A stretch of DNA of 64,000 nt, taken from sequence record PP328843.1; one strand, written 5' to 3'. The position numbers were made by a program, and so were the translations under genes. The DNA comes from Escherichia phage 215Ecol030PP. Positions within the stretch are counted from its first letter, which is position 1. The number at the start of each line of letters is the position of its first letter. Shown here one piece after another: positions 1 through 64,000 of this stretch. The notes beneath the pieces are model-generated. The model had not been told where the DNA came from. It was given only the letters and a program-made list of their open reading frames with translations, and did no database searches.

Positions 1-41
1 TGACGCCTATATGGCTCTCGCAGAGGCCATGAAAAAAGCGT

Positions 42-49
42 TATAAATA
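42..49 (+). promoter_or_regulatory. T4-type late promoter (TATAAATA) upstream of gene 22
   Basis: Exact TATAAATA about 28 nt upstream of the gene 22 ATG. Confidence 0.55.
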
Positions 50-76
50 TTATTATCTAAACAACAGGACTACAAA

Positions 77-886
77 ATGCTTAAAGAACAACTGATTGCC
101 GAAGCGCAGAAAATTGATGCTTCCGTTGCTCTTGATAGTATTTTCGAATCAGTTAATATTTCTCCGGAAGCAAAAGAAACTTTCGGCACTGTATTCGAAG
201 CTACCGTCAAGCAGCACGCCGTTAAATTAGCTGAATCTCATATCGCTAAAATTGCTGAAAAAGCAGAAGAAGAAGTAGAAAAAAATAAAGAAGAAGCAGA
301 AGAAAAAGCTGAGAAGAAAATCGCTGAGCAAGCTTCTAAATTCCTTGACCATCTTGCAAAAGAATGGCTCACTGAAAATAAATTAGCAGTAGATAAAGGT
401 ATCAAAGCCGAACTGTTTGAATCCATGCTTGGTGGATTGAAAGAGCTCTTTGTTGAACACAACGTTGTTGTTCCAGAAGAATCAGTTGATGTTGTAGCTG
501 AAATGGAAGAAGAGCTGCAAGAACATAAAGAAGAATCAGCTCGTCTGTTCGAAGAACTCAATAAGCGTGACGCATATATCAATTATGTGCAGCGTGAAGT
601 GGCATTGAGCGAAAGTACTAAAGATCTGACTGAGTCTCAAAAAGAAAAAGTCTCTGCTCTGGTCGAAGGTATGGATTATTCAGATGCATTCTCAAGTAAA
701 TTGAGTGCAATCGTAGAAATGGTGAAGAAATCTAATAAAGATGAAAGCACTATTACTGAGAGTATAAATACTCCTGATACTGAAGCAGCCGGACTGAATT
801 TCGTCACTGAAGCTGTAGAAGATAAAGCTGCACCTGGTGCAGAAGATATTGTAAGTGTATATGCGAAAGTCGCATCTCGTTTCTAA
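77..886 (+). CDS. 22: Prohead core scaffold protein gp22
   Basis: 269 aa, acidic Glu/Lys-rich coiled-coil-like protein directly upstream of the major capsid gene; length and position match T4 gp22. Confidence 0.9.
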   Translation: MLKEQLIAEAQKIDASVALDSIFESVNISPEAKETFGTVFEATVKQHAVKLAESHIAKIAEKAEEEVEKNKEEAEEKAEKKIAEQASKFLDHLAKEWLTENKLAVDKGIKAELFESMLGGLKELFVEHNVVVPEESVDVVAEMEEELQEHKEESARLFEELNKRDAYINYVQREVALSESTKDLTESQKEKVSALVEGMDYSDAFSSKLSAIVEMVKKSNKDESTITESINTPDTEAAGLNFVTEAVEDKAAPGAEDIVSVYAKVASRF

Positions 887-904
887 TTTTAAAGGTTAAC
901 ACAA

Positions 905-2470
905 ATGACTATCAAAACTAAAGCTGAACTTTTGAACAAATGGAAGCCATTACTGGAAGGTGAAGGTTTACCGGAAATTGCTAATAGCAAACAAGCGATT
1001 ATCGCTAAAATCTTTGAAAACCAGGAAAAAGATTTCCAGACAGCTCCGGAATATAAAGACGAAAAAATTGCTCAGGCATTCGGTTCTTTCTTAACAGAAG
1101 CTGAAATCGGTGGTGACCACGGTTACAATGCTACCAACATCGCTGCAGGTCAGACTTCTGGCGCAGTAACTCAGATTGGCCCAGCTGTTATGGGTATGGT
1201 ACGTCGTGCTATTCCTAACCTGATTGCTTTCGATATTTGCGGTGTTCAGCCGATGAACAACCCGACTGGCCAGGTATTCGCAATGCGCGCAGTATATGGT
1301 AAAGACCCAATTGCTTCCGGTGCTAAAGAAGCATTCCACCCAATGTATGGTCCAGATGCAATGTTCTCTGGTCAGGGTGCTGCTAAGAAATTCCCAGCTC
1401 TGGCTGCTAGCACACAAACCACAGCAGGTGATATCTATACTCACTTCTTCCAGGACACTGGTACTGTGTATCTGCAAGCTTCTGCTCAAGTAACAATTAG
1501 TGCAAGCGCAACTGATGCAGATAAATTAGATGCTGAAATTAAGAAACAAATGGAAGCTGGTGCACTGGTAGAAATCGCTGAAGGTATGGCTACTTCTATC
1601 GCTGAACTTCAGGAAGGTTTTAACGGTTCTACCGATAACCCATGGAATGAAATGGGCTTCCGTATCGATAAACAAGTTATCGAAGCTAAATCTCGTCAGC
1701 TGAAAGCTGCTTACTCTATTGAATTAGCACAAGACCTTCGCGCTGTTCACGGTATGGATGCTGATGCTGAACTGTCTGGTATTCTGGCTACCGAAATCAT
1801 GCTGGAAATCAACCGCGAAGTTGTTGATTGGATTAACTACTCCGCACAGGTTGGTAAATCTGGTATGACCCTGACTCCGGGTTCTAAAGCTGGTGTATTT
1901 GACTTCCAGGACCCAATCGATATTCGTGGTGCTCGCTGGGCAGGTGAATCCTTTAAAGCTCTGTTGTTCCAGATTGACAAAGAAGCAGTTGAAATTGCTC
2001 GTCAGACCGGTCGTGGTGAAGGTAACTTCATTATCGCTTCCCGTAACGTAGTTAACGTTCTGGCTTCAGTTGATACTGGCATTTCTTATGCTGCACAGGG
2101 TCTGGCTACCGGCTTTAACACTGATACTACCAAGTCAGTATTTGCTGGTGTTCTGGGTGGTAAATACCGTGTATATATCGACCAGTATGCTAAACAGGAT
2201 TATTTCACTGTAGGTTATAAAGGTCCGAACGAAATGGATGCTGGTATTTACTATGCTCCATATGTAGCTCTGACTCCGCTGCGTGGTTCCGATCCGAAGA
2301 ACTTCCAACCGGTAATGGGATTCAAAACTCGTTACGGTATCGGTATCAACCCATTTGCAGAATCCGCTGCTCAGGCTCCGGCTTCTCGCATCCAGAGCGG
2401 TATGCCTTCTATTCTGAATAGCCTTGGTAAAAACGCTTACTTTAGACGTGTATATGTTAAAGGTATCTAA
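905..2470 (+). CDS. 23: Major capsid protein gp23
   Basis: 521 aa; sequence recognised as T4 gp23 (HK97-fold major head protein); SD GGTTAA upstream. Confidence 0.95.
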   Translation: MTIKTKAELLNKWKPLLEGEGLPEIANSKQAIIAKIFENQEKDFQTAPEYKDEKIAQAFGSFLTEAEIGGDHGYNATNIAAGQTSGAVTQIGPAVMGMVRRAIPNLIAFDICGVQPMNNPTGQVFAMRAVYGKDPIASGAKEAFHPMYGPDAMFSGQGAAKKFPALAASTQTTAGDIYTHFFQDTGTVYLQASAQVTISASATDADKLDAEIKKQMEAGALVEIAEGMATSIAELQEGFNGSTDNPWNEMGFRIDKQVIEAKSRQLKAAYSIELAQDLRAVHGMDADAELSGILATEIMLEINREVVDWINYSAQVGKSGMTLTPGSKAGVFDFQDPIDIRGARWAGESFKALLFQIDKEAVEIARQTGRGEGNFIIASRNVVNVLASVDTGISYAAQGLATGFNTDTTKSVFAGVLGGKYRVYIDQYAKQDYFTVGYKGPNEMDAGIYYAPYVALTPLRGSDPKNFQPVMGFKTRYGIGINPFAESAAQAPASRIQSGMPSILNSLGKNAYFRRVYVKGI

Positions 2471-2485
2471 TCTTTGACGATTTAA

Positions 2486-2501
2486 GGGACCTTCGGGTCC
2501 C
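2486..2501 (+). terminator. GC hairpin (GGGACC-TTCG-GGTCCC) followed by T-run after gene 23
   Basis: Perfect inverted repeat with UUCG loop followed by TTTAGTTGTTTTT. Confidence 0.55.
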
Positions 2502-2518
2502 TTTAGTTGTTTTTATGG

Positions 2519-2526
2519 TATAAATA
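2519..2526 (+). promoter_or_regulatory. T4-type late promoter (TATAAATA) upstream of gene 24
   Basis: Exact TATAAATA 28 nt upstream of the gene 24 ATG. Confidence 0.55.
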
Positions 2527-2553
2527 AATCATATAAACTGAAAGGAAAGCGCA

Positions 2554-5449: not shown

Positions 5450-6868
5450 TTATGGATAGGTATAGATGATACCAGTTTCTAAAGCAGTTTTATGAATGAT
5501 GTATCCATTACGCGATTCTTGGACATCAACTTCTGGATAATCTTTCATCATCTTCTGAAGAGTGTAACGATGCAGGTAGTATTTACTATCTGGATCTTCA
5601 GTTTTCCAATCTTTACCTTCTTCAGTCATTTTTTGGATTTCATCCATAACCCACCAACCGCACCAGATGTAAGCTGAGCTACGATGTGGAAGAGGATGAA
5701 CATAAGGTAATTCACCTTCTGGTTCCGGAGCAGCTTTATCAGTTACCTGAACTTGACCTTCTGCTGTAATAGTTTTGCTATCATAATCAGCAGCAGTAAC
5801 AGTTGCAGTAACTTCAATAGTTTGACTTCCAACAGATGATGTATCAACGGTGTATACATTAGTTGACCCTTCTACAGGAGAAGAATCTTTCTTCCATGAA
5901 TACGTAATTTGCGCTTCTTCCGGAGCATCCGTAACGTTAGCAGTAAATGTAGCCGAAGCATCTTGCTGAACATTAATAGAAGGAGGAGTCAATGTAACCT
6001 GTGGATTCATTGTCTTCTTATTAACTGTCAATGATACTTCATTAGAAGTAACTTCCTTTTCATTATAATTTTCTGCAGTTACTTGGGCTACGCATTTAAT
6101 TCTTTTTACTCCACTTGTAGTTGGAGTATAGTTAAATGTAGAGTTAGTTTCTCCACCAACTTGTGAATCATCTACATACCACTGATACGTAGCAGACGCT
6201 CCGTCAGGTTGAGAAGCTAATGCAGCAGTAAATTGAACCGGGGTTCCAATTACTCCAGCAGCAGGACTAGCAGGAGTTACTGCCAAGGTAGTTGTCTGTG
6301 TCTTTTTATTAACTGTCAATGATACTTCATTGGAAGTAACGCTCAGTGCATCATAATCTGTCGCAGTTACTTGAGCTACACACTTAATTTTTTTAACTCC
6401 GCTTGTAGTAGGAGTATAATTGAATGTAGCAGAAGTTGCTTCGCTCACAGGAGAACCGTCAACGTACCATTGATACGTAGCAGATGCGCCCGATGGCTGC
6501 GAAGCTAAAGCAGCAGTAAATTCAACAGCTGTTCCGATTACTCCTTCTGGAGGACTATTAGGAGTTACAGCTAAGGTAGTTGTCTGTGTCTTATTTTGAA
6601 CTGTGATAGTTGTACTAATTTCAGCTGTTTCAGCTTCAGCTTCTGGAACTGTATTTGTTGCAACCACTTTAATAGTCTTTTGACCAGCAGGTCCTTTTAA
6701 TACATAATTAAAGGTTGCTTCAGCTCCATCCTGTGGAACATTATCTACACTCCAAGCATAGGTAATAGTTCCACCTTCAGTTTGACCACTGGGTGCAGCA
6801 GTAAACTGCTTGGTTTCATCAATAACCCCCGTTGGTGTTTTAGGAGTTATATCAACTGTAAAAGTCAT
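5450..6868 (-). CDS. hoc: Highly immunogenic outer capsid protein Hoc, with an extra Ig-like domain
   Basis: 472 aa; tandem Ig-like repeats and conserved C-terminal capsid-binding region; T4 Hoc is 376 aa, so about 96 aa (one domain) longer. Confidence 0.85.
   Translation of the reverse strand: MTFTVDITPKTPTGVIDETKQFTAAPSGQTEGGTITYAWSVDNVPQDGAEATFNYVLKGPAGQKTIKVVATNTVPEAEAETAEISTTITVQNKTQTTTLAVTPNSPPEGVIGTAVEFTAALASQPSGASATYQWYVDGSPVSEATSATFNYTPTTSGVKKIKCVAQVTATDYDALSVTSNEVSLTVNKKTQTTTLAVTPASPAAGVIGTPVQFTAALASQPDGASATYQWYVDDSQVGGETNSTFNYTPTTSGVKRIKCVAQVTAENYNEKEVTSNEVSLTVNKKTMNPQVTLTPPSINVQQDASATFTANVTDAPEEAQITYSWKKDSSPVEGSTNVYTVDTSSVGSQTIEVTATVTAADYDSKTITAEGQVQVTDKAAPEPEGELPYVHPLPHRSSAYIWCGWWVMDEIQKMTEEGKDWKTEDPDSKYYLHRYTLQKMMKDYPEVDVQESRNGYIIHKTALETGIIYTYP
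6013..6588 (-). repeat. Imperfect tandem duplication (2 x about 288 bp) encoding two roughly 80 percent identical Ig-like domains of Hoc
   Basis: Protein segments QTTTLAVTP...SLTVNKKT occur twice consecutively; approximate boundaries. Confidence 0.7.
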
Positions 6869-7558: not shown

Positions 7559-7571
7559 AATATTTCCTCAG

Positions 7572-7579
7572 TATAAATA
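7572..7579 (+). promoter_or_regulatory. T4-type late promoter (TATAAATA) upstream of uvsW
   Basis: Exact TATAAATA 30 nt upstream of the uvsW ATG. Confidence 0.55.
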
Positions 7580-7608
7580 TAGATATATTTATTACATGGT
7601 ATTTAGAC

Positions 7609-9120
7609 ATGACTGACATTAAAGTACATTTTTATGATTTTAGTCACGTGAGAATTGATTGTGAAGAAAGTACATTTCATGAACTCCGTGATTTCTTTAG
7701 CTTTGAAGCTGATGGGTATCGTTTTAATCCGAAGTACAGATATGGCCACTGGGATGGACGAATCCGTCTGTTAGATTATAATCGTCTTCTTCCATTCGGC
7801 TTAGTCGGGCAAATTAAAAAGTTCTGTGATAACTTTGGCTATAAAGCCTGGATTGACCCACAAATTAACGAAAAAGAAGAATTATCAAGAAAAGATTTTG
7901 ATGAATGGCTTTCTAAATTAGAAATCTATTCAGGAAATAAAAGAATTGAACCACACTGGTATCAAAAAGATGCAGTGTTCGAAGGATTAGTTAATCGTCG
8001 TAGAATTCTTAATCTTCCAACATCCGCTGGTAAATCTTTAATTCAAGCTTTGCTTGCGCGATATTATTTGGAAAATTATGAAGGTAAAATTCTTATCATT
8101 GTTCCAACAACTGCTCTGACAACTCAGATGGCTGATGACTTCGTCGACTATCGTTTATTCAGTCATGCAATGATAAAGAAAATTGGTGGCGGAGCATCAA
8201 AAGATGATAAATATAAAAATGATGCACCGGTCGTTGTTGGTACATGGCAAACTGTAGTAAAACAACCGAAAGAATGGTTCTCACAGTTTGGAATGATGAT
8301 GAATGATGAATGTCATCTTGCTACAGGAAAAAGTATTTCATCTATCATATCAGGTTTAAATAACTGCATGTTCAAATTTGGTCTATCAGGTTCATTACGT
8401 GATGGCAAAGCCAATATCATGCAGTATGTTGGAATGTTTGGTGAAATATTTAAGCCAGTAACGACTTCTAAGTTAATGGAAGATGGACAAGTAACTGAGC
8501 TAAAAATTAATAGTATTTTTCTTCGCTATCCCGATGAGTTCACTACTAAATTAAAGGGAAAAACTTACCAAGAAGAAATAAAAATTATTACTGGGCTCAG
8601 TAAAAGAAATAAATGGATCGCTAAATTAGCTATTAAGCTTGCACAAAAAGATGAAAACGCTTTTGTCATGTTTAAACATGTATCGCATGGTAAAGCTATT
8701 TTCGATTTAATTAAAAATGAATACGATAAAGTTTATTACGTATCAGGGGAAGTTGATACCGAAACCCGCAACGTAATGAAAACCTTAGCTGAAAATGGTA
8801 AAGGAATAATTATAGTAGCTAGTTATGGTGTATTTTCTACTGGTATTTCAGTTAAAAATCTGCATCATGTTGTTTTAGCGCACGGCGTTAAATCAAAAAT
8901 CATTGTATTACAAACAATCGGTCGTGTATTACGTAAGCATGGTTCTAAAACAATCGCAACAGTCTGGGACCTCATAGATGACGCGGGCGTCAAGCCAAAA
9001 TCTGCTAATACGAAAAAGAAATATGTTCATTTGAACTATCTTTTAAAACACGGCATTGATCGTATTCAGCGCTACGCAGATGAAAAATTTAATTACGTAA
9101 TGAAAACAGTTAATTTATAA
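7609..9120 (+). CDS. uvsW: UvsW RNA-DNA and DNA helicase (SF2)
   Basis: 503 aa; Walker A (PTSAGKS) and DECH box present; matches T4 UvsW. Confidence 0.92.
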   Translation: MTDIKVHFYDFSHVRIDCEESTFHELRDFFSFEADGYRFNPKYRYGHWDGRIRLLDYNRLLPFGLVGQIKKFCDNFGYKAWIDPQINEKEELSRKDFDEWLSKLEIYSGNKRIEPHWYQKDAVFEGLVNRRRILNLPTSAGKSLIQALLARYYLENYEGKILIIVPTTALTTQMADDFVDYRLFSHAMIKKIGGGASKDDKYKNDAPVVVGTWQTVVKQPKEWFSQFGMMMNDECHLATGKSISSIISGLNNCMFKFGLSGSLRDGKANIMQYVGMFGEIFKPVTTSKLMEDGQVTELKINSIFLRYPDEFTTKLKGKTYQEEIKIITGLSKRNKWIAKLAIKLAQKDENAFVMFKHVSHGKAIFDLIKNEYDKVYYVSGEVDTETRNVMKTLAENGKGIIIVASYGVFSTGISVKNLHHVVLAHGVKSKIIVLQTIGRVLRKHGSKTIATVWDLIDDAGVKPKSANTKKKYVHLNYLLKHGIDRIQRYADEKFNYVMKTVNL

Positions 9121-9145
9121 GGGCTTCGGCCCTTTGGAGAAAAAG

Positions 9146-9376
9146 ATGTTACTAGGATTTAAACAATTTCTTTATGAAGCTTCTATTGATGAATTTATGG
9201 GTAAAATTGCCTCTTGCCAAACATTAGAAGGTCTAGAAGAACTTGAAGCTTATTACAAGAAAAGAGTCAAAGAAACTGAATTAAAAGATACTGATGACAT
9301 CTCAGTCAGAGATGCTTTGGCAGGAAAAAGAGCTGAATTAGAAGATTCAGATGATGAAGTAGAAGAAAGTTTTTAA
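9146..9376 (+). CDS. uvsW.1: UvsW.1 small acidic protein
   Basis: 76 aa from the ATG after a GGAG SD; the ORF track start at 9134 is a TTG. Confidence 0.75.
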   Translation: MLLGFKQFLYEASIDEFMGKIASCQTLEGLEELEAYYKKRVKETELKDTDDISVRDALAGKRAELEDSDDEVEESF

Positions 9377-17994: not shown

Positions 17995-18024
17995 ACTATA
18001 ACACAACACGAGGGACTTGTAAAC
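17995..18024 (-). promoter_or_regulatory. T4-type early promoter (GTTTAC, 18-nt spacer, TATAGT)
   Basis: Minus-strand -35 GTTTAC and -10 TATAGT; part of a 53-bp repeat shared with the alc promoter. Confidence 0.55.
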
Positions 18025-18385
18025 TACATTTTGAACTTTTTAGTACGCGTAATAGGCATGCGTCGATTTTATACTGTTTCATTGTTTGAAGAGCAGTATC
18101 AAAAACAGCATTAATGACGCCAATTGGATTTCCACCCAAGTTTCTAAGCTTAACCAGTGATAATTTCTCGTTGACACCTATCATTACGATATGCATCATT
18201 TTATCGCCTGGCTTAACGTTTTTATTTGTATCACCGCCAGAGGTGTATGTACAAAATCTAAATCCAGGAAGCACGCTTTCTTCGTCGGCTTGAATAGCAA
18301 AAATTTGAGGTATTTTATGCTTAGGATTTAAGTTAACAACCGGCGCCGAAGCGCCGTCAAATAATTATGTAATAAGTTCCATGAT
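17996..18385 (-). pseudogene. Duplicated alt N-terminal segment interrupted by an in-frame TAA at codon 6
   Basis: Manual translation reads MELIT-stop-LFDGASAPVVNLNPKHKIPQIF...GFRFCTYTSGGDTNKNVKPGDKMMHIV..., colinear with Alt residues 2 to about 130; the ORF track reports only the GTG-initiated 92-aa distal part (17996-18274). Confidence 0.6.
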
Positions 18386-20443
18386 TTATCCTTGAACGAA
18401 CTTGTAAGGCATGTTTGCAATATCTATGCAAGACGCAATAATTCCAAGAGATGATTCTACTTTCTGTTTAACATTTGATGAAACAAATGATGCAAAGTCA
18501 ACTCTGTCTTCTATTTCAATATCACCTGTCATTGCAACTACTTCACCGGTTTCCATTAAACGGTCTCCGTCATAAATTACCGATTCGGTGAGTTCTTCTG
18601 TGGTCATAACTTCAGCTTGAATAAGCTTGTTGTTAGTTCTAACTGTTCCATCGTTGTAAGATGCATCGGTTATTTTATTAACTTTGACCATTAATCCACG
18701 TGGCAAAATGACTTCCATTTCATTTGAAGGCGCTAAACTTCCACCAGGTAAAACAACATTGACCTTATCAGCCCCAGTAATAACCCATCCAATTCCAACT
18801 AAATTATCGCTAGAATTTACTAGTCCTTCATCAGTTTTATCAATAGAAACACTTAGACGTTTTTCGTCTGGTAAAACACCTATAGATGAATCAGTCATCC
18901 AAGTACCAAAAATATTTGGATATAATGATGTTGACACAAAGTTTCTAAAATAAAAAACTCGATTTTTTACCATTGCTTCATATATTGAAGGTAACATTCG
19001 TTGTGAACGATACAAAGTAATACCTTTTGGTAATCGTTCACCATTTTTAAAGGCTGAATCTAAATTATCAATGGCTTGTTCTATTTCAGGTGCTGTTAAA
19101 ATACTTGTACGCTCATCTGGATTATATAATCCCAAAAGAGCATTATTTATGTCTACATATCCTGAACCTACATATTCACGAATTCCGCGTTTTTGCGCTG
19201 GCGTGTATTTAGATGAATCTTTATTTTCGACTATAGGATGTAATGACCATCCAGCGGTAAGAGCATATCCACGTAATTCTCTTCGAATAATCTTTGTTTT
19301 TATTGCATTCCAAGAATTTTGTACTAACTCATTTGCAGCATCTTGGTTTAAATGCGAATGTCTGTTAATATTTCTTTCAAACCAGGCACCTTTATATTTT
19401 TCTAAAGTATCATCGACGATAGAAGCAATAGTTTCTAAAGTTTTTATTGAAGTAATAGATTCTTTTCGTAATTTTTCTAAAGCTTTATTTTTTATTTCTG
19501 CATTAATAATGGATTCTTTATCTTCAGGAATTATAGAAGCTTCTCTGAATGCCATCCCAGCTGTAACACTGCTAAGAGCATTCTCTAGTGCAAATCCTGA
19601 AGTAGAAATTACCGTTAATTCATTAGAATCAGAAATTAAAGGCGCGTCCGCTGGTTTATTTAATTCTGCCGCTGAAGCCTCAAATTTTTGAAACATCGGT
19701 GTTTCAAATCTAGAAGATTCCAATGATTGACTTTGTGCAATTGCTCTACGGGAAATTTTAACTTTAACGATTACAGCTTGGTCAGAACGTTTATCATTTT
19801 CTTGTGCAATAGATGCTGCAATTGCCTCATTTTTAGTTACTTGAGCTCCAGTATCTTTATTGATATAAACATCACCGACCTTCGATTCAACCTTAGTAAA
19901 GAGCTCGGTACTAATTTCCGGAACTCCTGGAATGTCTTCTAGTGATACATTTTTGCGATGTATAAGAATATATGCATACTTTTTATCATAATCCCAGAGT
20001 TCCTTAAGAAGGACGTATCTGCCACCTGAACGACTACGGATAAGTCTATCAGCAATAACTTGAATTTGTCGAGCTTGACCAGCAGTTTTAGACTTAAGAA
20101 TACGAAGCATACAGGCATCAATTTTATACTGACGCATCGTCTGCATTGCAACAGTAAAAACTGAATTGATATAATTAATTGGGCTTGGACCAAGACCTTT
20201 CAATTTAGCAATTGAACCTTTAGCGGTTAATGTAAAAGGAACAATATGCATCATTTTATCGCCCATCTTTAAATCACGATTAGTGTCACCTCCAGATGTA
20301 TAGGTACATAAACGAAAGCCTGGTTGTTCAATTGCATCATCAACATGAACTGAAAAAATTTGCGGTATTTTCTTCTTTGGATTTAAGTTTGTAATCGGAA
20401 GAGTAGTATCTTCGTCAAATAATTCTGTAATTAGTTCCATCAT
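18386..20443 (-). CDS. alt: Alt, head-packaged ADP-ribosyltransferase
   Basis: 685 aa; T4 Alt length and position between 54 and 30. Confidence 0.88.
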   Translation of the reverse strand: MMELITELFDEDTTLPITNLNPKKKIPQIFSVHVDDAIEQPGFRLCTYTSGGDTNRDLKMGDKMMHIVPFTLTAKGSIAKLKGLGPSPINYINSVFTVAMQTMRQYKIDACMLRILKSKTAGQARQIQVIADRLIRSRSGGRYVLLKELWDYDKKYAYILIHRKNVSLEDIPGVPEISTELFTKVESKVGDVYINKDTGAQVTKNEAIAASIAQENDKRSDQAVIVKVKISRRAIAQSQSLESSRFETPMFQKFEASAAELNKPADAPLISDSNELTVISTSGFALENALSSVTAGMAFREASIIPEDKESIINAEIKNKALEKLRKESITSIKTLETIASIVDDTLEKYKGAWFERNINRHSHLNQDAANELVQNSWNAIKTKIIRRELRGYALTAGWSLHPIVENKDSSKYTPAQKRGIREYVGSGYVDINNALLGLYNPDERTSILTAPEIEQAIDNLDSAFKNGERLPKGITLYRSQRMLPSIYEAMVKNRVFYFRNFVSTSLYPNIFGTWMTDSSIGVLPDEKRLSVSIDKTDEGLVNSSDNLVGIGWVITGADKVNVVLPGGSLAPSNEMEVILPRGLMVKVNKITDASYNDGTVRTNNKLIQAEVMTTEELTESVIYDGDRLMETGEVVAMTGDIEIEDRVDFASFVSSNVKQKVESSLGIIASCIDIANMPYKFVQG

Positions 20444-20463
20444 ATCCTCTCTATTGTTTATTC

Positions 20464-28928: not shown

Positions 28929-30128
<1,200 letters not shown>

Positions 30129-30132
<4 letters not shown>

Positions 30133-33681: not shown

Positions 33682-34272
33682 CGTATGTTCGATTGAGCTC
33701 GCTAATTCTCAACCCGTTCTCTTATGAACTGCTGCATGTTACCATGCAGTCCAGACTATATCACAATCCCGGAGGGATTCTCCCCATTTCGAGTCGCTTG
33801 ACCCTACGTCCGAAGACTAGTCGTTGAACCTTGTTTTGCAATTGTCGCCGTGCCATCGTTTATATGTTGATGGTGATAAATCTTTCTTATCACAATATGG
33901 ACAATTCAATTGAATTCTATTTGGATTTAATTTACATCTGTCATTATGTTTTAGATAAAATCCAGGACCTTTACCAATGTGACCGCAGAAATCACATGTG
34001 ATTTCTTTTTGTGCAGGATGGGTCCCGTTCTTAACCATTTCTAATGTTTTGCTGATGTTCTTTTCTTATGGTCTTCCATCAGAATCTTTAGGTATAGGTC
34101 CGTTAGCATCTATCCAAATTTTTCTATAGTTCAATTGTGCATCCTCTTAAAAGTATAATCATATTATACTAATTAAAGGTGCAAGCAAAACCTTGGCTGC
34201 TAGTTTTCCATAAAGGACTTTCCAGCAATTAAAGGAGTTTTCGATAAACGTTACCGTTTAAAGGCGCATTTT
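33682..34272 (-). mobile_element. Group I self-splicing intron in nrdB (about 591 nt) carrying a short remnant homing-endonuclease-like ORF
   Basis: The nrdB reading frame is interrupted by about 0.6 kb between codons ...FYVSFA and CTFNFH...; exon 1 ends in U and the intron ends in G at the inferred junctions; T4 nrdB is known to carry a group I intron at this location. Confidence 0.7.
33817..34038 (-). CDS. Intron-encoded Cys-rich zinc-finger-like ORF (likely truncated I-TevIII-type homing endonuclease remnant)
   Basis: 73 aa with CxxCxH...C and CxxC...H..C patterns; too short for an intact HNH endonuclease. Confidence 0.5.
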   Translation of the reverse strand: MVKNGTHPAQKEITCDFCGHIGKGPGFYLKHNDRCKLNPNRIQLNCPYCDKKDLSPSTYKRWHGDNCKTRFND

Positions 34273-34948
34273 ACGCAAAAGATACATAAAAACGAATAGC
34301 TTCTAAGGCATTAATAACGTGCAAACAGAGGTAAAGAGATTTCATTAAAGCACGTTTAGCTTCGGCTTCTTGTTTAATAGCTCGGTTTAAACGAAAGACG
34401 GCATCAGGAGATTCTTTAGCTAGTTCTACAAATTCTTTAGCATTTTCCCATTCACGGGTTTTAATCAGAACATCATCATAATAACGTCCAATTGATTCAG
34501 CACGTTTCATAATAGCTTCATCTAATACAATCTCATCAAATACCTTCGATGGATCAGTATAAAGATTTCGCATGATATGAGTATATGAACGACTGTGAAT
34601 AGTTTCACTAAAAGTCCATGTAGCAACCCATGTATCAAGACTTGGGTCTGAAATTAATGACATAAGTACAGCAGACGGTGCACGGCCCTGAATGCTATCC
34701 AAAAGTGATTGATACTTCAGATTATTAGTAAAAATATCTTGCTGATATTGAGGAAGCTTATTAAACTGTGCAGCATCCATCATTAAGTTAACTTCTTCGG
34801 GACGCCAGAAAAAACTGATCTGCCGCTCAATGAGTTCTTCAAATACTCGATGTCGTTGAATATCATATCGAGCTAAACCTAATCCAGAACCAAAGAACAT
34901 CGGTTCATTCAAAACATCAACAGGGGATGTATTAAAAACTGTACTCAT
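34273..34948 (-). CDS. nrdB: Ribonucleotide reductase small subunit NrdB, exon 1
   Basis: 225 codons MSTVFNTSPVDVL...ALEAIRFYVSFA; class Ia R2 homology. Confidence 0.8.
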
Positions 34949-34999
34949 AAATTTTCCTCTTAGTTAATAGTTAGTGACTCGTCCATGAGTCATATTATA

Positions 35000-37822: not shown

Positions 37823-38134
37823 TTACACCGCCATTTTTCCTTTCAAGACACCATGGGACTGATAATCTTTGAGAACGAAATCTTTAGGCCTGAGTTTAAG
37901 AATGTATTCCAATTGTTCTTTAGTAGAAAGATAGCGGAATTTATAAGGCAATCCGCCTATTACCAGTTCACAAAGCTCTTTAGGTTCACGACGCAAAATT
38001 TCTTTACATTGTTCCACGTGATTCATATAGATATGAGTATTACCACCAGAAAATATCAAATCTCCTGGAATAAGATTACACATCTTAGCTACAATATGAA
38101 CTAACGCAGCATATGATGCAATGTTGAATGGAAG
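37823..38134 (-). CDS. td: Thymidylate synthase, exon 2
   Basis: Encodes LPFNIASYAALVHIVAKMCNLIPGDLIFSGGNTHIYMNH...KGKMAV, the TS C-terminal half. Confidence 0.88.
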   Translation of the reverse strand, partial: LPFNIASYAALVHIVAKMCNLIPGDLIFSGGNTHIYMNHVEQCKEILRREPKELCELVIGGLPYKFRYLSTKEQLEYILKLRPKDFVLKDYQSHGVLKGKMAV

Positions 38135-38396
38135 CATTATGTTCAGATAAGGTCGTTAATCTTATCCCGGAATTATATCCAGCTGCATGTCACCATGCAG
38201 AGCAGACTATATCTCCAACTTGTTAAAGCAAGTTGTCTATCGTTTCGAGTCACTTGACCCTACTCCCTAAAGGGATAGTCGTTAGGCATTTAGGTAGAAC
38301 CAAAGTCCTACAATTTAGCACGGGATTGTCTACTAGAGAGGTTCCCCGTTTAGATAGATTACAAGTATAAGTCACCTTATACTCAGGCCTCAATTA
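38135..38396 (-). mobile_element. Group I self-splicing intron in td, ORF-less (262 nt)
   Basis: The intron begins UAAUUGAGGCCUGAGUAUAAGGUGACUUAUAC... and ends ...CUGAACAUAAUG, which I recognise as the T4 td intron core; no I-TevI ORF is present. Confidence 0.8.
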
Positions 38397-39086
38397 ACCC
38401 AAGAAAACATCTACTGAGCGTTGATACCACTGCAAATCCAAATAGCCATTACGCACATTAAACTGATAGAACATATGACAAGGCGGTAATGCCATATATT
38501 TAAGTTCAGCTGGATTCCATGCAGAAACAATTTGACGCCTATCATTTGGCAATTTTTTAATACGATCAATAACTTCTACAATTTGGTCTACACCGCCAAA
38601 ATCACGCCATTGTTTTCCATAAATTGGACCAAGTTCACCGCTATGGTATCCTAAATCTTTTGCTTGATTTTCGTAATTTTCATCCCAGACTGTTTTGCCT
38701 TGAATTAATGAATCATGCTGAATTTGGTCTACACCGCCAAAATCACGCCATTGTTTTCCATAAATTGGACCAAGTTCACCGCTATGGTATCCTAAATCTT
38801 TTGCTTGATTTTCGTAATTTTCATCCCAGACTGTTTTGCCTTGAATTAATGAATCATGCTGAATTAATCGTAAATCATTTACGTTAGTACTTCCTGATAA
38901 GAACCAAAGTAGCTCAGCAATGCAAGCTTTCCAAGCGAGCTTCTTAGTTGTTACCGCAGGAAAACCTTTAGTTAAATCCCAGCGTAATTTAGTACCGAAC
39001 AAAGCAATTGTTCCTGTGCCTGTTCGGTCATCGGTTTCATAGCCATTTTCAAAAATGTCTTTAATTAAATCTTGGTATTGTTTCAT
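38397..39086 (-). CDS. td: Thymidylate synthase, exon 1 (contains an in-frame 47-codon tandem duplication)
   Basis: MKQYQDLIKDIFENGYETDDRTGTGT... with catalytic ALPPCHMF; the segment QHDSLIQ...GGVDQI occurs twice in a row. Confidence 0.88.
38580..38861. repeat. Perfect direct tandem duplication, 2 x 141 bp, inside td exon 1
   Basis: Positions 38580-38720 and 38721-38861 are identical by eye; junction microhomology ATT. Confidence 0.9.
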
Positions 39087-39130: not shown

Positions 39131-39478
39131 TCAATACGGTTTAGCATCAAATTTTCTTTCGATTTCAGGAGTGAAATATAATTCTTTACCGCGTTTGGAA
39201 AAGCGACCAATAATATGATAATTATTCTCATCAAACGTAATATTACCAATATCCATAGCTTTCAACCAAATATCGATATTTCTATCCAGCTTTATGTCAA
39301 AATTCCAATACGGAGAACTATTACCGAAAATACTGCAAGCAGATTCAGTGAAACAACTGCTATAAATCTTGTCTTTAGGAACTACTAATTGATAGACACC
39401 TTTAATAAACTGAGGACCCTGCCACTTTGGCTGTTTCGCGTCTTCTTCTAATAGAATAGGGTAATAATTAAAGTTCAT
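39131..39478 (-). CDS. Hypothetical 115-aa protein inserted between frd and td
   Basis: ORF MNFNYYPILLEED... from ATG 39478 (the ORF track start at 39490 is a GTG); no recognisable motifs. Confidence 0.55.
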   Translation of the reverse strand: MNFNYYPILLEEDAKQPKWQGPQFIKGVYQLVVPKDKIYSSCFTESACSIFGNSSPYWNFDIKLDRNIDIWLKAMDIGNITFDENNYHIIGRFSKRGKELYFTPEIERKFDAKPY

Positions 39479-39498
39479 ATTTTCCGCCACGCGTTATT

Positions 39499-40328
<830 letters not shown>

Positions 40329-40638: not shown

Positions 40639-40932
40639 TTATTTTTGAATTTTATCGAGCCACTTACCAAGCTTAATCATTTCTTTAGTAGCCTTTTCCA
40701 TACTTCTGAACTTAACCAATAGAGGATAGGTATCGACACCCATAACTAAACTGGTTACAAGACTGTGTTCACCCACAAGCCATAACGAATACGTTTGAAT
40801 ATCGAGCCCGTAATTTCTGTCTTTATGGACCCGTACACCCATCACTTCAAATTTCTCACTAGCTTTTTCTACCGCATCCAGGAAATCATCTTTAGTCATA
40901 TTAGGCCTTAAAAGTTTTTCGCAAAAGTTCAA
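40639..40932 (-). CDS. Hypothetical protein
   Basis: 97-aa ORF. Confidence 0.5.
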   Translation of the reverse strand: MNFCEKLLRPNMTKDDFLDAVEKASEKFEVMGVRVHKDRNYGLDIQTYSLWLVGEHSLVTSLVMGVDTYPLLVKFRSMEKATKEMIKLGKWLDKIQK

Positions 40933-41332: not shown

Positions 41333-41623
41333 TTATTGTTCAATCAGTCCCATGTAAAATTCTGCGTCTTCAGAATCCATGCCATCACAATATTCATTAG
41401 CCATAAAGCGGGTGAGGTCTTCAAGAGGACCTTCAATAACGATTTGAATACTCCAAAACTTAGAATCTTGTACGCTTGTGATACTAAGTTCAGGATAACG
41501 ATTACGAATAATCTCTTCAATATATTCAAAATCAACGATGTCAATATCAACTTTAGCCATATTATTTTCCTCTTTAATCATCAGCAGTATTGCCGATAGT
41601 TGTATAGTACCATGGAAGGACAA
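41333..41623 (-). CDS. Hypothetical protein
   Basis: 96-aa acidic ORF with AGAGGAAAATAAT ATG context. Confidence 0.5.
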
Positions 41624-41633
41624 GGATGTAAAC
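41604..41633 (-). promoter_or_regulatory. T4-type early promoter (GTTTAC, 18 nt, TACTAT) with upstream A/T-rich element
   Basis: Minus-strand hexamers; member of a repeated promoter cassette family (see findings). Confidence 0.5.
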
Positions 41634-41664
41634 CGTTTTGTGAAAAAATTTTTGAAATAAAAAA

Positions 41665-41683
41665 GGGGACCTCTAGGGTCCCC
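41665..41683 (-). terminator. Intrinsic terminator downstream of gene 32
   Basis: GGGGACC-CTAGA-GGTCCCC hairpin followed on the minus strand by TTTTTTATTTC. Confidence 0.6.
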
Positions 41684-41705: not shown

Positions 41706-42611
41706 TTAAAGGTCATTCAAAAGGTCATCCAGGTCCGTGTCATCAGCACTAGATGAACTGCCAGAGCTTGAGCTCATAAAATCATCTTCAGTTTTTGTTT
41801 TGAAGTCATCAACATTGAATGCATCCAAATCATCAGCAACTTTATCAGCTTTCTTAGCGGCAGTTGCAGCGGCACCACCCATAGCAGCAGTTCCCATAAC
41901 TTGACTGAACTTAGTGCTCAGTTCTTCAAACGATTTGAATTTATCTTTAGAAGTCATTTCAGAAAGGTCAACCATTTGTTCGAACAGTTCTTTCTGGAAA
42001 GATTCATCGTCAATGTTTGGAATCGCAGATTGATTCAGGAATTTAGATTCGTCGTAGTTACTAAATCCAGAAACTTGTTTAACTTTCAGTACAAAGTTAG
42101 CACCTTCCCACGGACAAGTTACATCAACCGGAGTTTCACCCATTTCAACATCAACCGCAATCATTGCATTGATTTTATCCCAGATTTTCTTACCGAAGCG
42201 GTATTTAAATACTTTACCTTCGTTTTCTGGAGCAGCTGGATCTTTTACTACAAGAATGTTAGCCCAGTAAGAAGTTTTACGTTTAACAAGACTGTACTCT
42301 TTATTGTCAGTGTTGTACAGATCATTTTTACTGATGTACTGACATACTGGGCAAGAATCGTAATCACCGTGGGTAGATGAACATGTTTCAATATACCATT
42401 TACCATTTTTCTTGAAACCGTGATTTACAAGAATTGCGAATGGTGCTTGTTCATCATTTTTAGACGGAAGAAAACGAATTACTGCTTGACCGTTACCCGC
42501 ATTGTCGAGTTTCAGTTTCCACTCGCCTTTATCTTCAGAAGAAAAACCTTTATTGCCATTCAGTTTAGCCATTTGTGCAGCGAGTTCAGCAGTAGATTTA
42601 CGTTTAAACAT
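41706..42611 (-). CDS. 32: gp32 single-stranded DNA-binding protein
   Basis: 301 aa; sequence recognised as T4 gp32, including the acidic Ser-rich C-terminus. Confidence 0.95.
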
Positions 42612-42690
42612 TTTTATTTCCTTTTTAATTTAATTAACAGTTGGTGCTATGACGATGTATGACCTCATAGCTGGTCAGTGAGATAATTAT
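42612..42690 (-). promoter_or_regulatory. Gene 32 translational operator (pseudoknot plus unstructured A/U-rich leader)
   Basis: Leader mRNA ...GCUAUGAGGUCAUACAUCGUCAUAGCACCAACUGUUAAUUAAAUUAAAAAGGAAAUAAAAAUG matches the known gp32 autoregulatory site architecture. Confidence 0.6.
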
Positions 42691-42694
42691 AATC

Positions 42695-42702
42695 TATTTA
42701 TA
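42695..42702 (-). promoter_or_regulatory. T4-type late promoter (TATAAATA) upstream of gene 32
   Basis: Minus-strand TATAAATA upstream of the gene 32 leader. Confidence 0.5.
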
Positions 42703-42710
42703 ATAAGCAA

Positions 42711-57924: not shown

Positions 57925-57953
57925 ATAGTATCATGTTTAAAGCAGAAGTAAAC
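57925..57953 (-). promoter_or_regulatory. T4-type early promoter (GTTTAC, 17 nt, TACTAT) for motA
   Basis: Minus-strand consensus hexamers about 35 nt upstream of motA. Confidence 0.55.
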
Positions 57954-57992
57954 ACTTTTTTGCACTCTTTTTCAAGAGCTCTAATAAAGTAC

Positions 57993-58220
57993 TTACTTAA
58001 TGTTCAGATTACGAACTTCGATTTCGTCTTCATGGGCAAAATCAAACTGTTTGAATTCTGTGTCACCTTTAAATTTAAAAATCATTGTGAAGAAAGTCAG
58101 AACACCAGGTTTTTCTTCACGAACTCCACAGATATCATATTCAATACCATCTACAACCAGTTTGTTAGCAGTCAGAGCATTTTTAGCTTTAACGATTTCG
58201 TTTTCGATTTTAAATTTCAT
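57993..58220 (-). CDS. Hypothetical protein (motA.1 position)
   Basis: 75-aa ORF. Confidence 0.5.
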   Translation of the reverse strand: MKFKIENEIVKAKNALTANKLVVDGIEYDICGVREEKPGVLTFFTMIFKFKGDTEFKQFDFAHEDEIEVRNLNIK

Positions 58221-58269
58221 TTTTTGTATCTCCGGGTTGTTTGTTTCAGTTCATTTATTTGATAGTTGT

Positions 58270-58299
58270 ATAGTACCACAGTATGCTTTGGTTGTAAAC
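58270..58299 (-). promoter_or_regulatory. T4-type early promoter (GTTTAC, 18 nt, TACTAT)
   Basis: Minus-strand hexamers; member of the repeated promoter cassette family. Confidence 0.5.
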
Positions 58300-58330
58300 C
58301 GTTTTGTGAAAAAATTTTTGAAATAAAAAA

Positions 58331-58350
58331 GGGAGAGCCGAGGCTCTCCC
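58331..58350 (-). terminator. Intrinsic terminator downstream of the gene 52 operon
   Basis: GGGAGAGCC-GA-GGCTCTCCC hairpin followed on the minus strand by TTTTTTATTTC. Confidence 0.55.
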
Positions 58351-60672: not shown

Positions 60673-60732
60673 ATTAATTTCCTCTAAATTATTTTCTACT
60701 CCAAGGCCGCATGAATACACACGGCCATTAAA

Positions 60733-61517: not shown

Positions 61518-61625
61518 GCAATAAGTACAGAATTCATAATTTTCATAATAACCTCATCACAAAAGTAAATGTTAAACAAATTACTGGAATACTAATTAAC
61601 CAAACAAAACACCACCATAATGAAC

Positions 61626-61889
61626 TCATAGTTCAATCTCAATGATTTCCAGGTGTTTTTGTTTTATTGCCTTTTTAACACAATCATGGACTAAATATGA
61701 CCATGAATCATTATATTCTCCATTAACTAATCGTTGGAGATCTTCACGTGATGATAAGTAAGGTTGATCTGATTCCCATTTTGATAAAAATACTGCAGTA
61801 AAAATATCTCCTTCACCTGTCGTTGAAGTCGTAAATGCAATAAATTCACCGGTAATTTTATGTTTAGCGTAATAAAATTTAAATTTCAT
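61626..61889 (-). CDS. Hypothetical protein
   Basis: 87-aa ORF with GGAGGAGTAAAA ATG context. Confidence 0.55.
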   Translation of the reverse strand: MKFKFYYAKHKITGEFIAFTTSTTGEGDIFTAVFLSKWESDQPYLSSREDLQRLVNGEYNDSWSYLVHDCVKKAIKQKHLEIIEIEL

Positions 61890-61916
61890 TTTTACTCCTC
61901 CGTAGCTGATAGTTGT

Positions 61917-61946
61917 ATAGTACCACAGTCCTTGTGGTATGTAAAC
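61917..61946 (-). promoter_or_regulatory. T4-type early promoter (GTTTAC, 18 nt, TACTAT)
   Basis: Minus-strand hexamers upstream of ORF 61626-61889. Confidence 0.5.
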
Positions 61947-61965
61947 TGTTTTGTGAAAAAATTTT

Positions 61966-62523
61966 TTAAATGGAAAGATACCATCCGTTGTAGTTGCTTT
62001 TTCTTACAACCTTACGAAGGTCTTCTCTGTCACCGATGAACTTCGGAGTGTACTGGATGACACCTGGATGAATTTCTTTAGTGTTGAATATAATTATACA
62101 GTCAGCGACTTGATGATTTAGAATGGGCCCTAGATTTATTCCAGAACCATATGGATACTCTCCGCTGCATCCGGTTGTTACCGAAATCCAACGTGAGTCA
62201 GTTTGATGTGTCTTAACTTCTACACGAAGCCCACAGTATTTTGGATGCGCCAAAACATCCCATGCATATGTGTACGGATCATCGACATCTTCTTGACCTT
62301 TGTTAACATACCCGCTCAGCCAATCTGCTACAAAAAATTCTGCGTACACAGCGATACGGCATCTTTCGATAACTTCTGCCTTATCTTGATTTGGGTTTTG
62401 TTTTAAAGAGTATCTTGCTGTATCAGCAATTTTGGCCTTCATTTCACTAGTCAAGTCACTGTTCGATAGGGTAAATGTCGGAATCTGAAATAGTCTCTGT
62501 AACCCAGGATTCGTTTTCTGCAT
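61966..62523 (-). CDS. denB: Putative endonuclease IV (DenB)
   Basis: 185 aa; length and position upstream of ndd and downstream of rIIB match T4 denB; assignment by synteny. Confidence 0.6.
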   Translation of the reverse strand: MQKTNPGLQRLFQIPTFTLSNSDLTSEMKAKIADTARYSLKQNPNQDKAEVIERCRIAVYAEFFVADWLSGYVNKGQEDVDDPYTYAWDVLAHPKYCGLRVEVKTHQTDSRWISVTTGCSGEYPYGSGINLGPILNHQVADCIIIFNTKEIHPGVIQYTPKFIGDREDLRKVVRKSNYNGWYLSI

Positions 62524-62785
62524 TTAGACTTTCCTTTTTACCACTGAGATAAGCGTTATATACTTTAAGAGTGCCGTAATAAATTCGGTCATTTTCATCT
62601 AAAGACTCGCGGTCAAGTTCATCGAGCTCCTTTTTATCCATGACTATAACATCATTACAGTAAAGAAACCCAAGTTTTTCGTGACCAAACTCAAATTTAT
62701 TACAGTACACAATATTAGCGTGATGATTTCCGTGCAGTTTAATCTCTTTTATGTCAGAATCACCGATATTCATACAATAAATCAT
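62456..62785 (-). CDS. Hypothetical protein (denB.1 position)
   Basis: 109-aa ORF. Confidence 0.5.
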   Translation of the reverse strand: MIYCMNIGDSDIKEIKLHGNHHANIVYCNKFEFGHEKLGFLYCNDVIVMDKKELDELDRESLDENDRIYYGTLKVYNAYLSGKKESLNAENESWVTETISDSDIYPIEQ

Positions 62786-62823
62786 AATTTTTCCTTAAAA
62801 CAAAAGGGCCGAAGCCCTTTATT

Positions 62824-63018
62824 TTACTTGAATTGTGCAATTCTTTTCTCTAGACATTCAGCATAAGATTTCATTGAGATAAACTGCGAAAGTAGCAGTT
62901 CTTGCTCAACTGCGCTAACTGTTAGAAACTTTGCGCTTTCTAAAAATTTGCTCAGTGCATTAATTTTGAGCATTAATTGATCGTATTCTTCTTTTACTCG
63001 TGCTTGATAACCTAACAT
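62824..63018 (-). CDS. Hypothetical protein
   Basis: 64-aa ORF flanked by GGGCCGAAGCCC hairpins. Confidence 0.45.
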   Translation of the reverse strand: MLGYQARVKEEYDQLMLKINALSKFLESAKFLTVSAVEQELLLSQFISMKSYAECLEKRIAQFK

Positions 63019-63050
63019 AATTTTCCTTAATGTGATAAGGGCCGAAGCCC

Positions 63051-63989
63051 TTATTTAAATTGTTCAGTAACGTCTTCAACTACTTCGTATTGGCAGGTAC
63101 GCATTTTAGCATCGTTGTAATCAATCGGAATTGATACTACATCACGCGGATGTACTTTAACTTTTACAACTCGACTGGTTGAACTGCCAAAGTGACGAAT
63201 ATAAGATTTAGAACACACATGCAGACCACGAGAACAAGTTTGTGTATCATCGTCATTCACACGAGTACGTGGCATTTTAACTACTTTACCAGGACTGTTA
63301 TCAAAGGTGTTTGAGTGACAGTCAAAGTAGTTGTCACGAACTACTTTCCAAGCATAGAAGTAACCATCTTCGGTGATTTCAATATCGTTTGCTACCAAGA
63401 AATCAAAGAGTCGAGATACCGCTTTTTGGCTTGGGTTTTCCAACAGATTTTCCAAGAACGGAAAATAAAATTCAAAGTTTTCACCTTTTTCCATCGAATC
63501 GAGAATACGATCAACTAAACCAGACCGCAATTCAATATTTTGATAGAACAAGCTTCCACCTTCAATTCGAACATCACCGGAAATATATTTTTCAACAGCG
63601 CGACGAACGTTAATTTTTTGCGCAGCTTCTTCCAGCTTATCCGCTACAAGCAGATTAAGAATTTCCTGGAAGTTTGAATGAGTATTAGGAGTTGCGTTAT
63701 AAGTTACACCGTCAACAGTAATTGAAATGAATTTTTTAGATGCATTCCAAATAATGTCAGATTTAGCAACTGGAGCAATAACTGCATCGCTATTAACTTT
63801 AACTGTAATATCACCGCTAATAGTAACTTTAGAGCGTTTAGCTTCTTCAGCATTTTTCAAAACACGACGAATTGTGTCAACCGATACACCTTGCCAATCA
63901 GCCAATTCCTGTTGGGTGTAATTACCACTTGAATACAATTTAACAATTTCAGCTTGTTCGTTTTTGGTCAGGCATTTAATATTGTACAT
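63051..63989 (-). CDS. rIIB: rIIB membrane-associated lysis-inhibition protein
   Basis: 312 aa; sequence recognised as T4 rIIB. Confidence 0.93.
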   Translation of the reverse strand: MYNIKCLTKNEQAEIVKLYSSGNYTQQELADWQGVSVDTIRRVLKNAEEAKRSKVTISGDITVKVNSDAVIAPVAKSDIIWNASKKFISITVDGVTYNATPNTHSNFQEILNLLVADKLEEAAQKINVRRAVEKYISGDVRIEGGSLFYQNIELRSGLVDRILDSMEKGENFEFYFPFLENLLENPSQKAVSRLFDFLVANDIEITEDGYFYAWKVVRDNYFDCHSNTFDNSPGKVVKMPRTRVNDDDTQTCSRGLHVCSKSYIRHFGSSTSRVVKVKVHPRDVVSIPIDYNDAKMRTCQYEVVEDVTEQFK

Positions 63990-64000
63990 AATTTTCCTTA

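Follow-up and report, generated by a model that had tools for sequence, protein, structure and literature searches.

The 64,000-nt stretch of the Escherichia phage 215Ecol030PP genome analysed here (PP328843.1; "the window" below) follows the T4 gene order and lacks homing endonuclease genes (HEGs) that T4 carries at the same junctions. This raises the question of whether it represents a distinct T-even lineage and a recipient rather than a donor in seg-mediated marker exclusion, as originally predicted, or simply an ordinary relative of T4.

Relationship of the window to T4 and other T-even phages

T4 (NC_000866) positions 104041–168903, from gene 22 through rIIB, align collinearly with the window, with the same gene order throughout, nucleotide identities of ~96–98% over most of its length, and indels which fit the T4 annotation. 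The collinear order and high identity to T4 and its relatives place the phage in Tequatrovirus (T4-type), as does the breadth of matches: 439–477 database records cover at least 80% of 25-kb queries from the window. The nearest relative differs from one segment to another, each time at ~96–97% identity, which is ordinary Tequatrovirus mosaicism. The window is best explained, with a probability of roughly 85%, as an ordinary mosaic Tequatrovirus sequence spanning gene 22 to rIIB, in the common HEG-poor state.

Compared to T4, the window is missing segD, segE, segG, mobE, nrdB.1, and the I-TevI ORF. The T4 record bears out the map given in the original prediction: segD separates gene 23 from 24, segE separates inh from uvsW, SegG separates 32 from 59, and the td intron contains I-TevI; the absences of mobE and nrdB.1 had been overlooked. 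As anticipated, tblastn searches of the window with the SegD, SegE, SegG, and I-TevI proteins gave no match to any of them. When all 15 T4 HEG proteins were used (E ≤ 10), there was likewise no Seg, Mob, I-TevI, or I-TevII match, and no SegA–G- or MobA–E-like ORF was found in the window, the best tblastn E-value for these being no better than 0.3 (chance level). The sole real match among the 15 was an I-TevIII remnant (E = 1.5e-51). Replacement of T4's HEGs by different ones was also considered and ruled out: when ten ORFs specific to the window, among them the frd-td and motA-52 inserts, were scanned with Pfam and PHROG, no nuclease domain was found, the only matches being to DUF5417, DUF7418, and PHROG families without an assigned function. 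The window is nevertheless not free of HEG-related DNA, because it contains a td intron and an nrdB intron with the I-TevIII remnant. Neither the ORF-less td intron nor the remnant-bearing nrdB intron had been noted in the original prediction.

The three seg junctions

Genes 23–24, inh–uvsW, and 32–59 are adjacent and HEG-free, as had been described, with spacers of 83, 50, and 99 bp. The 23–24 spacer (2471–2553, plus strand) contains a terminator-like hairpin (2484–2503) and a TATAAATA motif. At this junction T4 has 789 bp, including segD (106561–107232 in the T4 record), against 60 unaligned bp in the window. The inh–uvsW spacer (7559–7608, plus strand) corresponds to a 635-bp junction in T4 containing segE (112057–112674), and over 181 bp the sequences of T2, RB18, and PD112 are all 100% identical to that of the window. 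The 59–32 spacer (42612–42710, minus strand), 100% identical to that of T2, corresponds to a 623-bp junction in T4 containing SegG (147909–148541). The window spacers hold junction-specific sequence missing from T4. The short T2-type spacers are most likely the original state, with segD, segE, and segG as insertions into them in T4.

Uninterrupted junctions are the usual condition. They were found in 587 of 654 matching records (~90%) for 23–24, 446 of 606 (~74%) for inh–uvsW, and 356 of 497 (~72%) for 32–59, counted as database records, which include RefSeq/GenBank duplicates and sampling bias and do not represent independent lineages.

Gene 32 itself is mosaic, with a T4-like 5' third which could include the SegG site. 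This segment, next to a T2-type spacer, was considered as a possible footprint of SegG co-conversion; that reading was not adopted, T4-like sequence being what is found by default throughout the window.

The td locus

In td, on the minus strand, exon 1 (38397–39086; 549 nt plus a 141-nt duplication) and exon 2 (37823–38134) are separated by a 262-nt group I intron without an I-TevI ORF (38135–38396), identified by Rfam model RF00028 and by alignment with T4 and PD112. The intron scores 65.5 bits (gathering threshold 50), covering model positions 1–253 (the full-length model). Its insertion site is that of the T4 intron, and T2 does not have the 262-nt block. Roughly 268 database records carry a td intron. 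Its core is ~99% identical to that of T4, a divergence no greater than that of the flanking exons. The intact I-TevI ORF expected of a mobile intron is not present: sequence corresponding to T4 144470–143716 has been deleted, with the junction at 38304/38303 inside a hairpin (38311–38294) whose 7-bp stem is capped by a UUUG loop. The predicted fold is good (z = −3.4) and closes a hairpin over the junction.

The same deletion junction (GGACT/TTGGTTC) is found in PD112 (NC_054928, vB_vPM_PD112) and vB_EcoM_CE1. PD112 is 97.9% identical to the window over the td intron and flanks; it differs in having a td–frd ORF of 68 aa, unlike that of the window, and in lacking the 141-bp duplication in exon 1. 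This duplication is perfect, tandem, and in frame (38580–38865). Its junction had no exact match in IMG/VR or JGI metagenome contigs, and it may be an assembly artefact.

The T4 intron has the full I-TevI ORF, while other phages have shorter deletions (in T4 coordinates, 144341–143772 in G28 and e11/2, and 144459–143764 in Shinka), so that the deletion shared by the window and PD112 is the largest of a nested series. The td gene keeps a group I intron, predicted to be self-splicing, in which loss of I-TevI would have left a closed P6a-like hairpin. On grounds of parsimony, the absence of I-TevI would be a secondary loss, a late stage in the HEG cycle of invasion, degeneration, and loss. Because deletion derivatives with different endpoints occur in other phages, ORF loss seems to be recurrent at this site.

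An alternative is that the ORF-less intron is the ancestral, pre-invasion form, and that I-TevI entered its P6a loop later, in the T4 lineage. ORF invasion of this kind has been proposed for phage introns (PMC2988022), and the window allele would suit it: its junction forms a perfect hairpin (7-bp stem, 4-nt loop) in which no ORF-specific residue is left, and the identical allele occurs in PD112 and CE1. Against this, the window allele is simply the far end of the nested series, its core has diverged from that of T4 no further than the flanking exons have, and the deletion derivatives in other phages retain I-TevI fragments. This history is considered unlikely, with the direction of change argued from parsimony; the window allele has no ORF-specific sequence of its own. 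Secondary loss is the preferred reading for td.

In either case, td is not an empty I-TevI target, as an ORF-less intron occupies the homing site. Because the intron still interrupts that site, the allele should be immune to I-TevI.

The nrdB locus

The nrdB gene, also on the minus strand, consists of exon 1 (34273–34948), a 591-nt group I intron (33682–34272), and exon 2 (33179–33681). Together the exons are as long as the T2 nrdB gene (1179 nt); the last base of the 5' exon is U and that of the intron is G. The intron boundaries come from alignment with T4 and from the block missing in the intronless T2 gene. Rfam, which lists only the td intron for the window, did not report this one at its gathering threshold, and it was assigned by homology to the characterised T4 intron rather than by covariance model. 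It differs from that of T4 by a 6-bp deletion, a 1-nt deletion, and two substitutions (~99% identity). Within it is the I-TevIII pseudogene remnant (33817–34109, minus strand), detected by tblastn as two HSPs in different frames. This has the T4-type internal deletion of ~500 bp (the allele is 499 bp shorter than those with full-length I-TevIII), and the additional 1-nt deletion splits it into two reading frames.

Sequence comparison shows the nrdA–nrdB region to be mosaic. The 51-bp spacer between the two genes (34949–34999, minus strand) is without mobE and nrdB.1 and is of the mobE-less type found in SHFML-11 and T2. The first ~170 bp of nrdB, on the other hand, are T4/Manna-type, and a patch at 34356–34473 is of non-T4 type. 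No database record had more than 86.5% identity to the mobE-less spacer joined to a T4-type nrdB 5' end.

The defunct nrdB intron is mobilised in trans by MobE, which nicks nrdB at codon 42 (Wilson & Edgell 2009, PMC2790892). All the mobE-less phages sampled in that study had AAG as this codon (PMC2790892). The window is an exception to that pattern: codon 42 (34825–34823), at the published nick site (PMC2790892), is CGG, as in T4 and Manna, while T2 has AAG and SHFML-11 AAA. That the CGG allele is immune to MobE is a hypothesis of Wilson & Edgell (PMC2790892). The window thus shares with their trans-homing model the defunct intron and the T4-type nick-site allele predicted to be co-converted, and differs from that system in having no mobE.

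The locus may have originated by recombination of a phage that had mobE with one that did not. This could have happened through a MobE-triggered conversion tract ending short of mobE, or through replacement of mobE by an empty spacer. The locus looks like the product of past HEG activity and not like a naive recipient.

Lineage markers

Several features cited as marking a distinct lineage are present. Hoc is longer than in T4 (472 vs. 376 aa), with an extra Ig-like repeat; PseT is only 82.7% identical to that of T4, compared to ~98% for neighbouring genes; and there is an ORF between frd and td (39131–39490, minus strand), matching phrog_1928 (function unknown) and without a nuclease domain. 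In addition, gp37 and gp38 differ from those of T4; gp38 is adhesin-type, with 44.6% identity to T2 gp38, and both proteins are just distantly similar to their T2 counterparts. Several other small ORFs are also extra relative to T4.

These do not add up to a distinct T-even lineage, because empty junctions are the majority state, the frd–td ORF is T2-like (99.1% amino acid identity), and the nearest relative depends on the segment compared. The frd–td ORF and adhesin-type gp38 are T2-like or widespread, not distinctive, and the HEG-poor junctions are likewise known biology. It is T4 that is the outlier among T-even phages, as reviews have already stated, and its HEGs explain marker exclusion (PMC2988022).

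The classical HEG-poor recipient, known from T2 × T4 partial exclusion, is T2 itself (PV958097). Like the window, it is without segG and mobE, and has the identical 99-bp 59–32 spacer and inh–uvsW junction, the frd–td ORF, and an adhesin-type gp38. Unlike the window, it has intronless td and nrdB genes. The introns are instead features in common with T4, namely the td intron core and the nrdB intron with its internally deleted I-TevIII.

Recipient status and origin of the HEG-poor state

Crosses in the literature show RB30, which has no segE, and T2L, which has no segG, to be on the receiving side in homing and marker exclusion (PMC2330249, PMC2988022), SegE and SegG acting on phages that do not have them (PMC2330249), while SegD reportedly does not home. 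The window has the corresponding absence of seg genes at homologous junctions. It is therefore a plausible recipient for segE and segG, a susceptibility suggested by identity to the T2 spacers and qualified for SegG by the T4-like 5' third of gene 32. The predicted role of recipient rather than donor holds to this extent and fails to extend to the intron loci. At td, the intron-filled homing site implies that the phage is not a recipient for I-TevI, and with a T4-type nick-site allele in nrdB it is probably not one for mobE. In mixed infection with T4, judging from the T2 and RB30 crosses, the phage would be expected to gain segE and segG, without acquiring I-TevI by homing and without segD homing; MobE would probably be resisted.

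It could be argued that the phage belongs to a naive lineage, never invaded by T4-type HEGs and with every T4 HEG locus empty and cleavable. The three short seg junctions, which T2 and hundreds of other phages share in identical form, would fit, as would the lack of Seg and Mob homologues. This is improbable overall and already contradicted at td and nrdB: both introns are present, one with an I-TevIII remnant; the 5' end of nrdB is an allele otherwise found only beside mobE; and an intron-filled td cannot present an exon-junction homing site. The idea that HEG absence reflects misassembly, such as collapse or mis-joining at repeated GIY-YIG genes, can be set aside as extremely improbable in spite of the one possible artefact in the window (the td duplication), because the empty junctions recur base for base (up to 100% identity) in many independently sequenced genomes and contain junction-specific sequence not found in T4.

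The genome is thus better described as HEG-poor than as naive, because it has an ORF-less td intron and a defunct nrdB intron with the T4-type codon 42. A tentative extension, which we consider somewhat less probable than not, is that it is an "immunised survivor", carrying HEG-resistant target alleles without the endonucleases themselves: at td, a homing site blocked by the ORF-less intron, and at nrdB, the MobE-associated nick-site allele along with the defunct intron.

Implications

That the seg, mob, and intron endonucleases of T4 are missing from most of its relatives has been known for decades, and is the basis of T2 × T4 marker exclusion. What the window adds is modest: its place in a naturally occurring series of I-TevI genes with ever larger deletions within an intact td intron, and a recombinant nrdB in which the defunct T4 intron and nick-site allele occur without mobE, as an exception to the 2009 pattern. 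Both loci illustrate late stages of the HEG life cycle in phages, and they could be used for testing the spread of immunity without an endonuclease. If the phage does carry resistant alleles in this way, it would be evidence from nature that immunity can pass through T-even populations without the HEG itself, by way of co-conversion tracts or HEG loss, and could help to explain why most relatives of T4 stay HEG-poor despite very efficient homing.

Homing Endonuclease Genes and Junctions

In the T4 record (NC_000866), segD (106561–107232) lies between genes 23 and 24, segE (112057–112674) between inh and uvsW, segG (147909–148541) between genes 32 and 59, and I-TevI (143694–144431) within the td intron, as the original prediction had it. 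At the corresponding points the window has no seg genes, only spacers of 83 bp (2471–2553; 789 bp in T4), 50 bp (7559–7608; 635 bp in T4), and 99 bp (42612–42710; 623 bp in T4). When all 15 T4 homing endonuclease proteins were compared with it (tblastn, E ≤ 10), SegD, SegE, SegG, and I-TevI had no match, and I-TevIII was the only one that did (E = 1.5e-51). No nuclease domains were found in ten window-specific ORFs. mobE and nrdB.1 are missing too, leaving a nrdA-nrdB gap of 51 bp vs. 700 bp in T4. The window is poor in homing endonuclease genes (HEGs), yet not free of HEG-related DNA, since it holds a group I intron in td and an nrdB intron with I-TevIII.

Short queries across each junction showed 23-24 to be uninterrupted in 587 of 654 matching phage records, inh-uvsW in 446 of 606 (including T2, at 100% identity), and 32-59 in 356 of 497 (RB32 and RB14 included). 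Although duplicate entries and sampling bias affect these record counts, they plainly point one way: the seg-less junction is the majority form among matching records. The 59-32 and nrdA-nrdB junctions of T2 (PV958097) are empty like those of the window, and its frd-td ORF is 99% identical. The other traits cited for a distinct T-even lineage are also real: a longer Hoc (472 vs. 376 aa in T4), a diverged PseT (82.7% identical to that of T4, with neighboring genes at ~98%), a gp38 of the T2 adhesin type (44.6% identity), and an ORF between frd and td. Since each is common to many phages, however, they do not define such a lineage.

The window is collinear with T4 104041–168903 (gene 22 to rIIB; blastn). 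By megablast, 439 phage records, all T4-like, span at least 80% of its first 25 kb, with phage e11/2 (vB_EcoM_112) the best match (96.8%). The closest relative is SHFML-11 for 25–50 kb (95.8%) and PYps14T or PM107 for 50–64 kb (96–97%), so the identity of the nearest relative shifts from segment to segment; no near-identical record was among the database matches of these segments. Overall, it is an ordinary mosaic Tequatrovirus.

The td Intron

The td intron (38396–38135, minus strand, 262 nt by alignment to T4 and T2) is a full-length group I intron (Rfam, 38183–38406, 65.5 bits vs. a gathering score of 50). It lacks exactly T4 144470–143716, the I-TevI ORF and its upstream expression signals, and the deletion junction forms a 7-bp hairpin capped by a UUUG loop. 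The intron is present in about 268 records, 36 of which match the ORF-less query over at least 80% of its length. Among the representatives aligned, the ORF is complete in T4, G28 and e11/2 lack T4 144341–143772 but keep both ORF ends, Shinka lacks 144459–143764, and phage vB_vPM_PD112 (NC_054928) shares the endpoints of the window. This nested series shows repeated ORF loss inside an intact intron, with the allele seen here inherited and the most complete deletion. Secondary loss of I-TevI is the most parsimonious reading; that the ORF-less intron is instead the ancestral form is unlikely.

Exon 1 of td contains a perfect (100%) in-frame tandem duplication (38580–38865, minus strand, 141 bp × 2.0), giving a predicted Td of 333 rather than 286 aa, with residues 76–122 repeated. 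It is in none of the top database hits, and its junction was not found in IMG/VR or JGI metagenome contigs. Genuine slippage could explain it, as a 4-bp AATT microhomology flanks the units. An artifact could as well: its length equals the default final k-mer of MEGAHIT, 141, and a circular-contig overlap that stayed untrimmed and became internal when the genome was rotated would look the same.

The nrdB Locus

The nrdB intron (34272–33682, minus strand, 591 nt) is of the T4/Manna type; relative to that of T4 it has two substitutions and two deletions, one of 6 bp and one of 1 nt. Its I-TevIII has the T4-type internal deletion and a further frameshift. A four-way alignment with T4, Manna, and SHFML-11 shows the nrdA-nrdB region to be mosaic. 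The nrdA 3′ end and spacer are of the mobE-less type (47/47 and 45/48 identical to SHFML-11), while over its first ~170 bp nrdB agrees with T4 and Manna (60/60, vs. 45–51/60 for SHFML-11). Matches of at least 96% all stop at the nrdB start and adjoin mobE, and no database record above 86.5% identity joins this 5′ end to the mobE-less spacer. Many phages have the intron without mobE, but in these I-TevIII is full-length (records span 1860 bp vs. the 1361-bp query); truncated I-TevIII and a mobE-less junction occur together in none of the best 60 matches. We infer that the locus is recombinant. A MobE-triggered conversion tract may have spanned the nick site and intron, ending before mobE, or an empty spacer may have been substituted for mobE. 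The defunct nrdB intron can be mobilized in trans by MobE (PMC2790892); by either route, it is now parted from its mobilizer.

In an exon 1 patch of ~120 bp just upstream of the intron site (34356–34473), the window, SHFML-11, and Manna agree (55–59/60) and T4 is the odd one out, strongly diverged (24/60).

Other Features

Tandem repeats at 6011–6604 in hoc (5450–6868; a 288-bp unit in 2.1 copies, 79% identity) and the 96 extra residues of Hoc suggest an additional Ig-like domain from an old tandem duplication. UvsW is 503 aa (7609–9120), followed by a separate 80-aa ORF (9134–9376), whereas T4 RefSeq annotates a single 587-aa UvsW in a region with flagged sequence discrepancies; the window supports the split arrangement. 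The region upstream of alt cross-matches the alt 5′ end (17996–18392 and 20241–20448, ~71% identity), as does the T4 alt.-1/alt.-2 partial duplication; T2 has two annotated Alt-like genes here.

A ~73-bp element occurs at 41595–41667, 58261–58333, and 61899–61971, two copies lying right on the border of window-specific insertions (57934–58255 and 61652–61898). On the minus strand it has a GC-rich stem-loop, then an early-promoter-like sequence (GTTTAC ... TATAC), and it resembles the promoter/stem-loop cassettes for which a role in the modular shuffling of T4-type phages has been proposed. The 322-bp motA-gene 52 insertion recurs at 100% identity in ACG-C40 and CM8, among others. Five small ORFs without T4 counterparts, all of unknown function, sit between conserved early genes: 29830–30132 (phrog_2364), 40083–40328 (phrog_3183), 40639–40932 (phrog_4423), 61626–61889 (phrog_2390), and 62456–62785 (phrog_2237, also DUF7418). 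This placement is typical of hyperplastic regions of T4-type genomes.

Expected Behavior in Co-infection with T4

The phage had been proposed as a recipient in seg-mediated marker exclusion. This would hold for segE and segG, which, judging from published crosses (PMC2330249, PMC2988022, PMC2790892), it should gain from T4 because its spacers are identical to those of T2. Gene 32 (41706–42611) tempers the segG prediction, being T4-like at 22 of 40 T4/T2 polymorphic sites, mostly in nt 52–319. It is mosaic, mostly T2-like within nt 372–852, with an upstream spacer 100% of T2 type.

The proposal would not extend to the other HEGs. I-TevI recognizes the intronless exon junction (PMC2988022), so the td allele should be no homing target, and by the published crosses I-TevI should not be gained in this way. 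MobE-dependent nicks map to nrdB codon 42 (Wilson and Edgell, PMC2790892), which those authors reported as AAG in all mobE-less phages and as AAG, AAA, CGG, or CGA in mobE-bearing ones; it is CGG in the window, T4, and Manna, AAG in T2, and AAA in SHFML-11. The phage should probably resist MobE, if those authors' idea of immunity in the codon 42 region holds. SegD does not home according to Sokolov (2018), as cited in PMC10055350, and on that account no segD homing should be expected here.

The observation itself stands, with the HEGs missing and their T4 positions right, and its interpretation is only partly supported. Absence of HEGs from most T4 relatives is already known, and the window is an ordinary example. 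That this genome bears HEG-immune alleles without the HEGs themselves has perhaps a one-in-three chance of being correct (about 0.35) and, if true, would be of moderate interest only.
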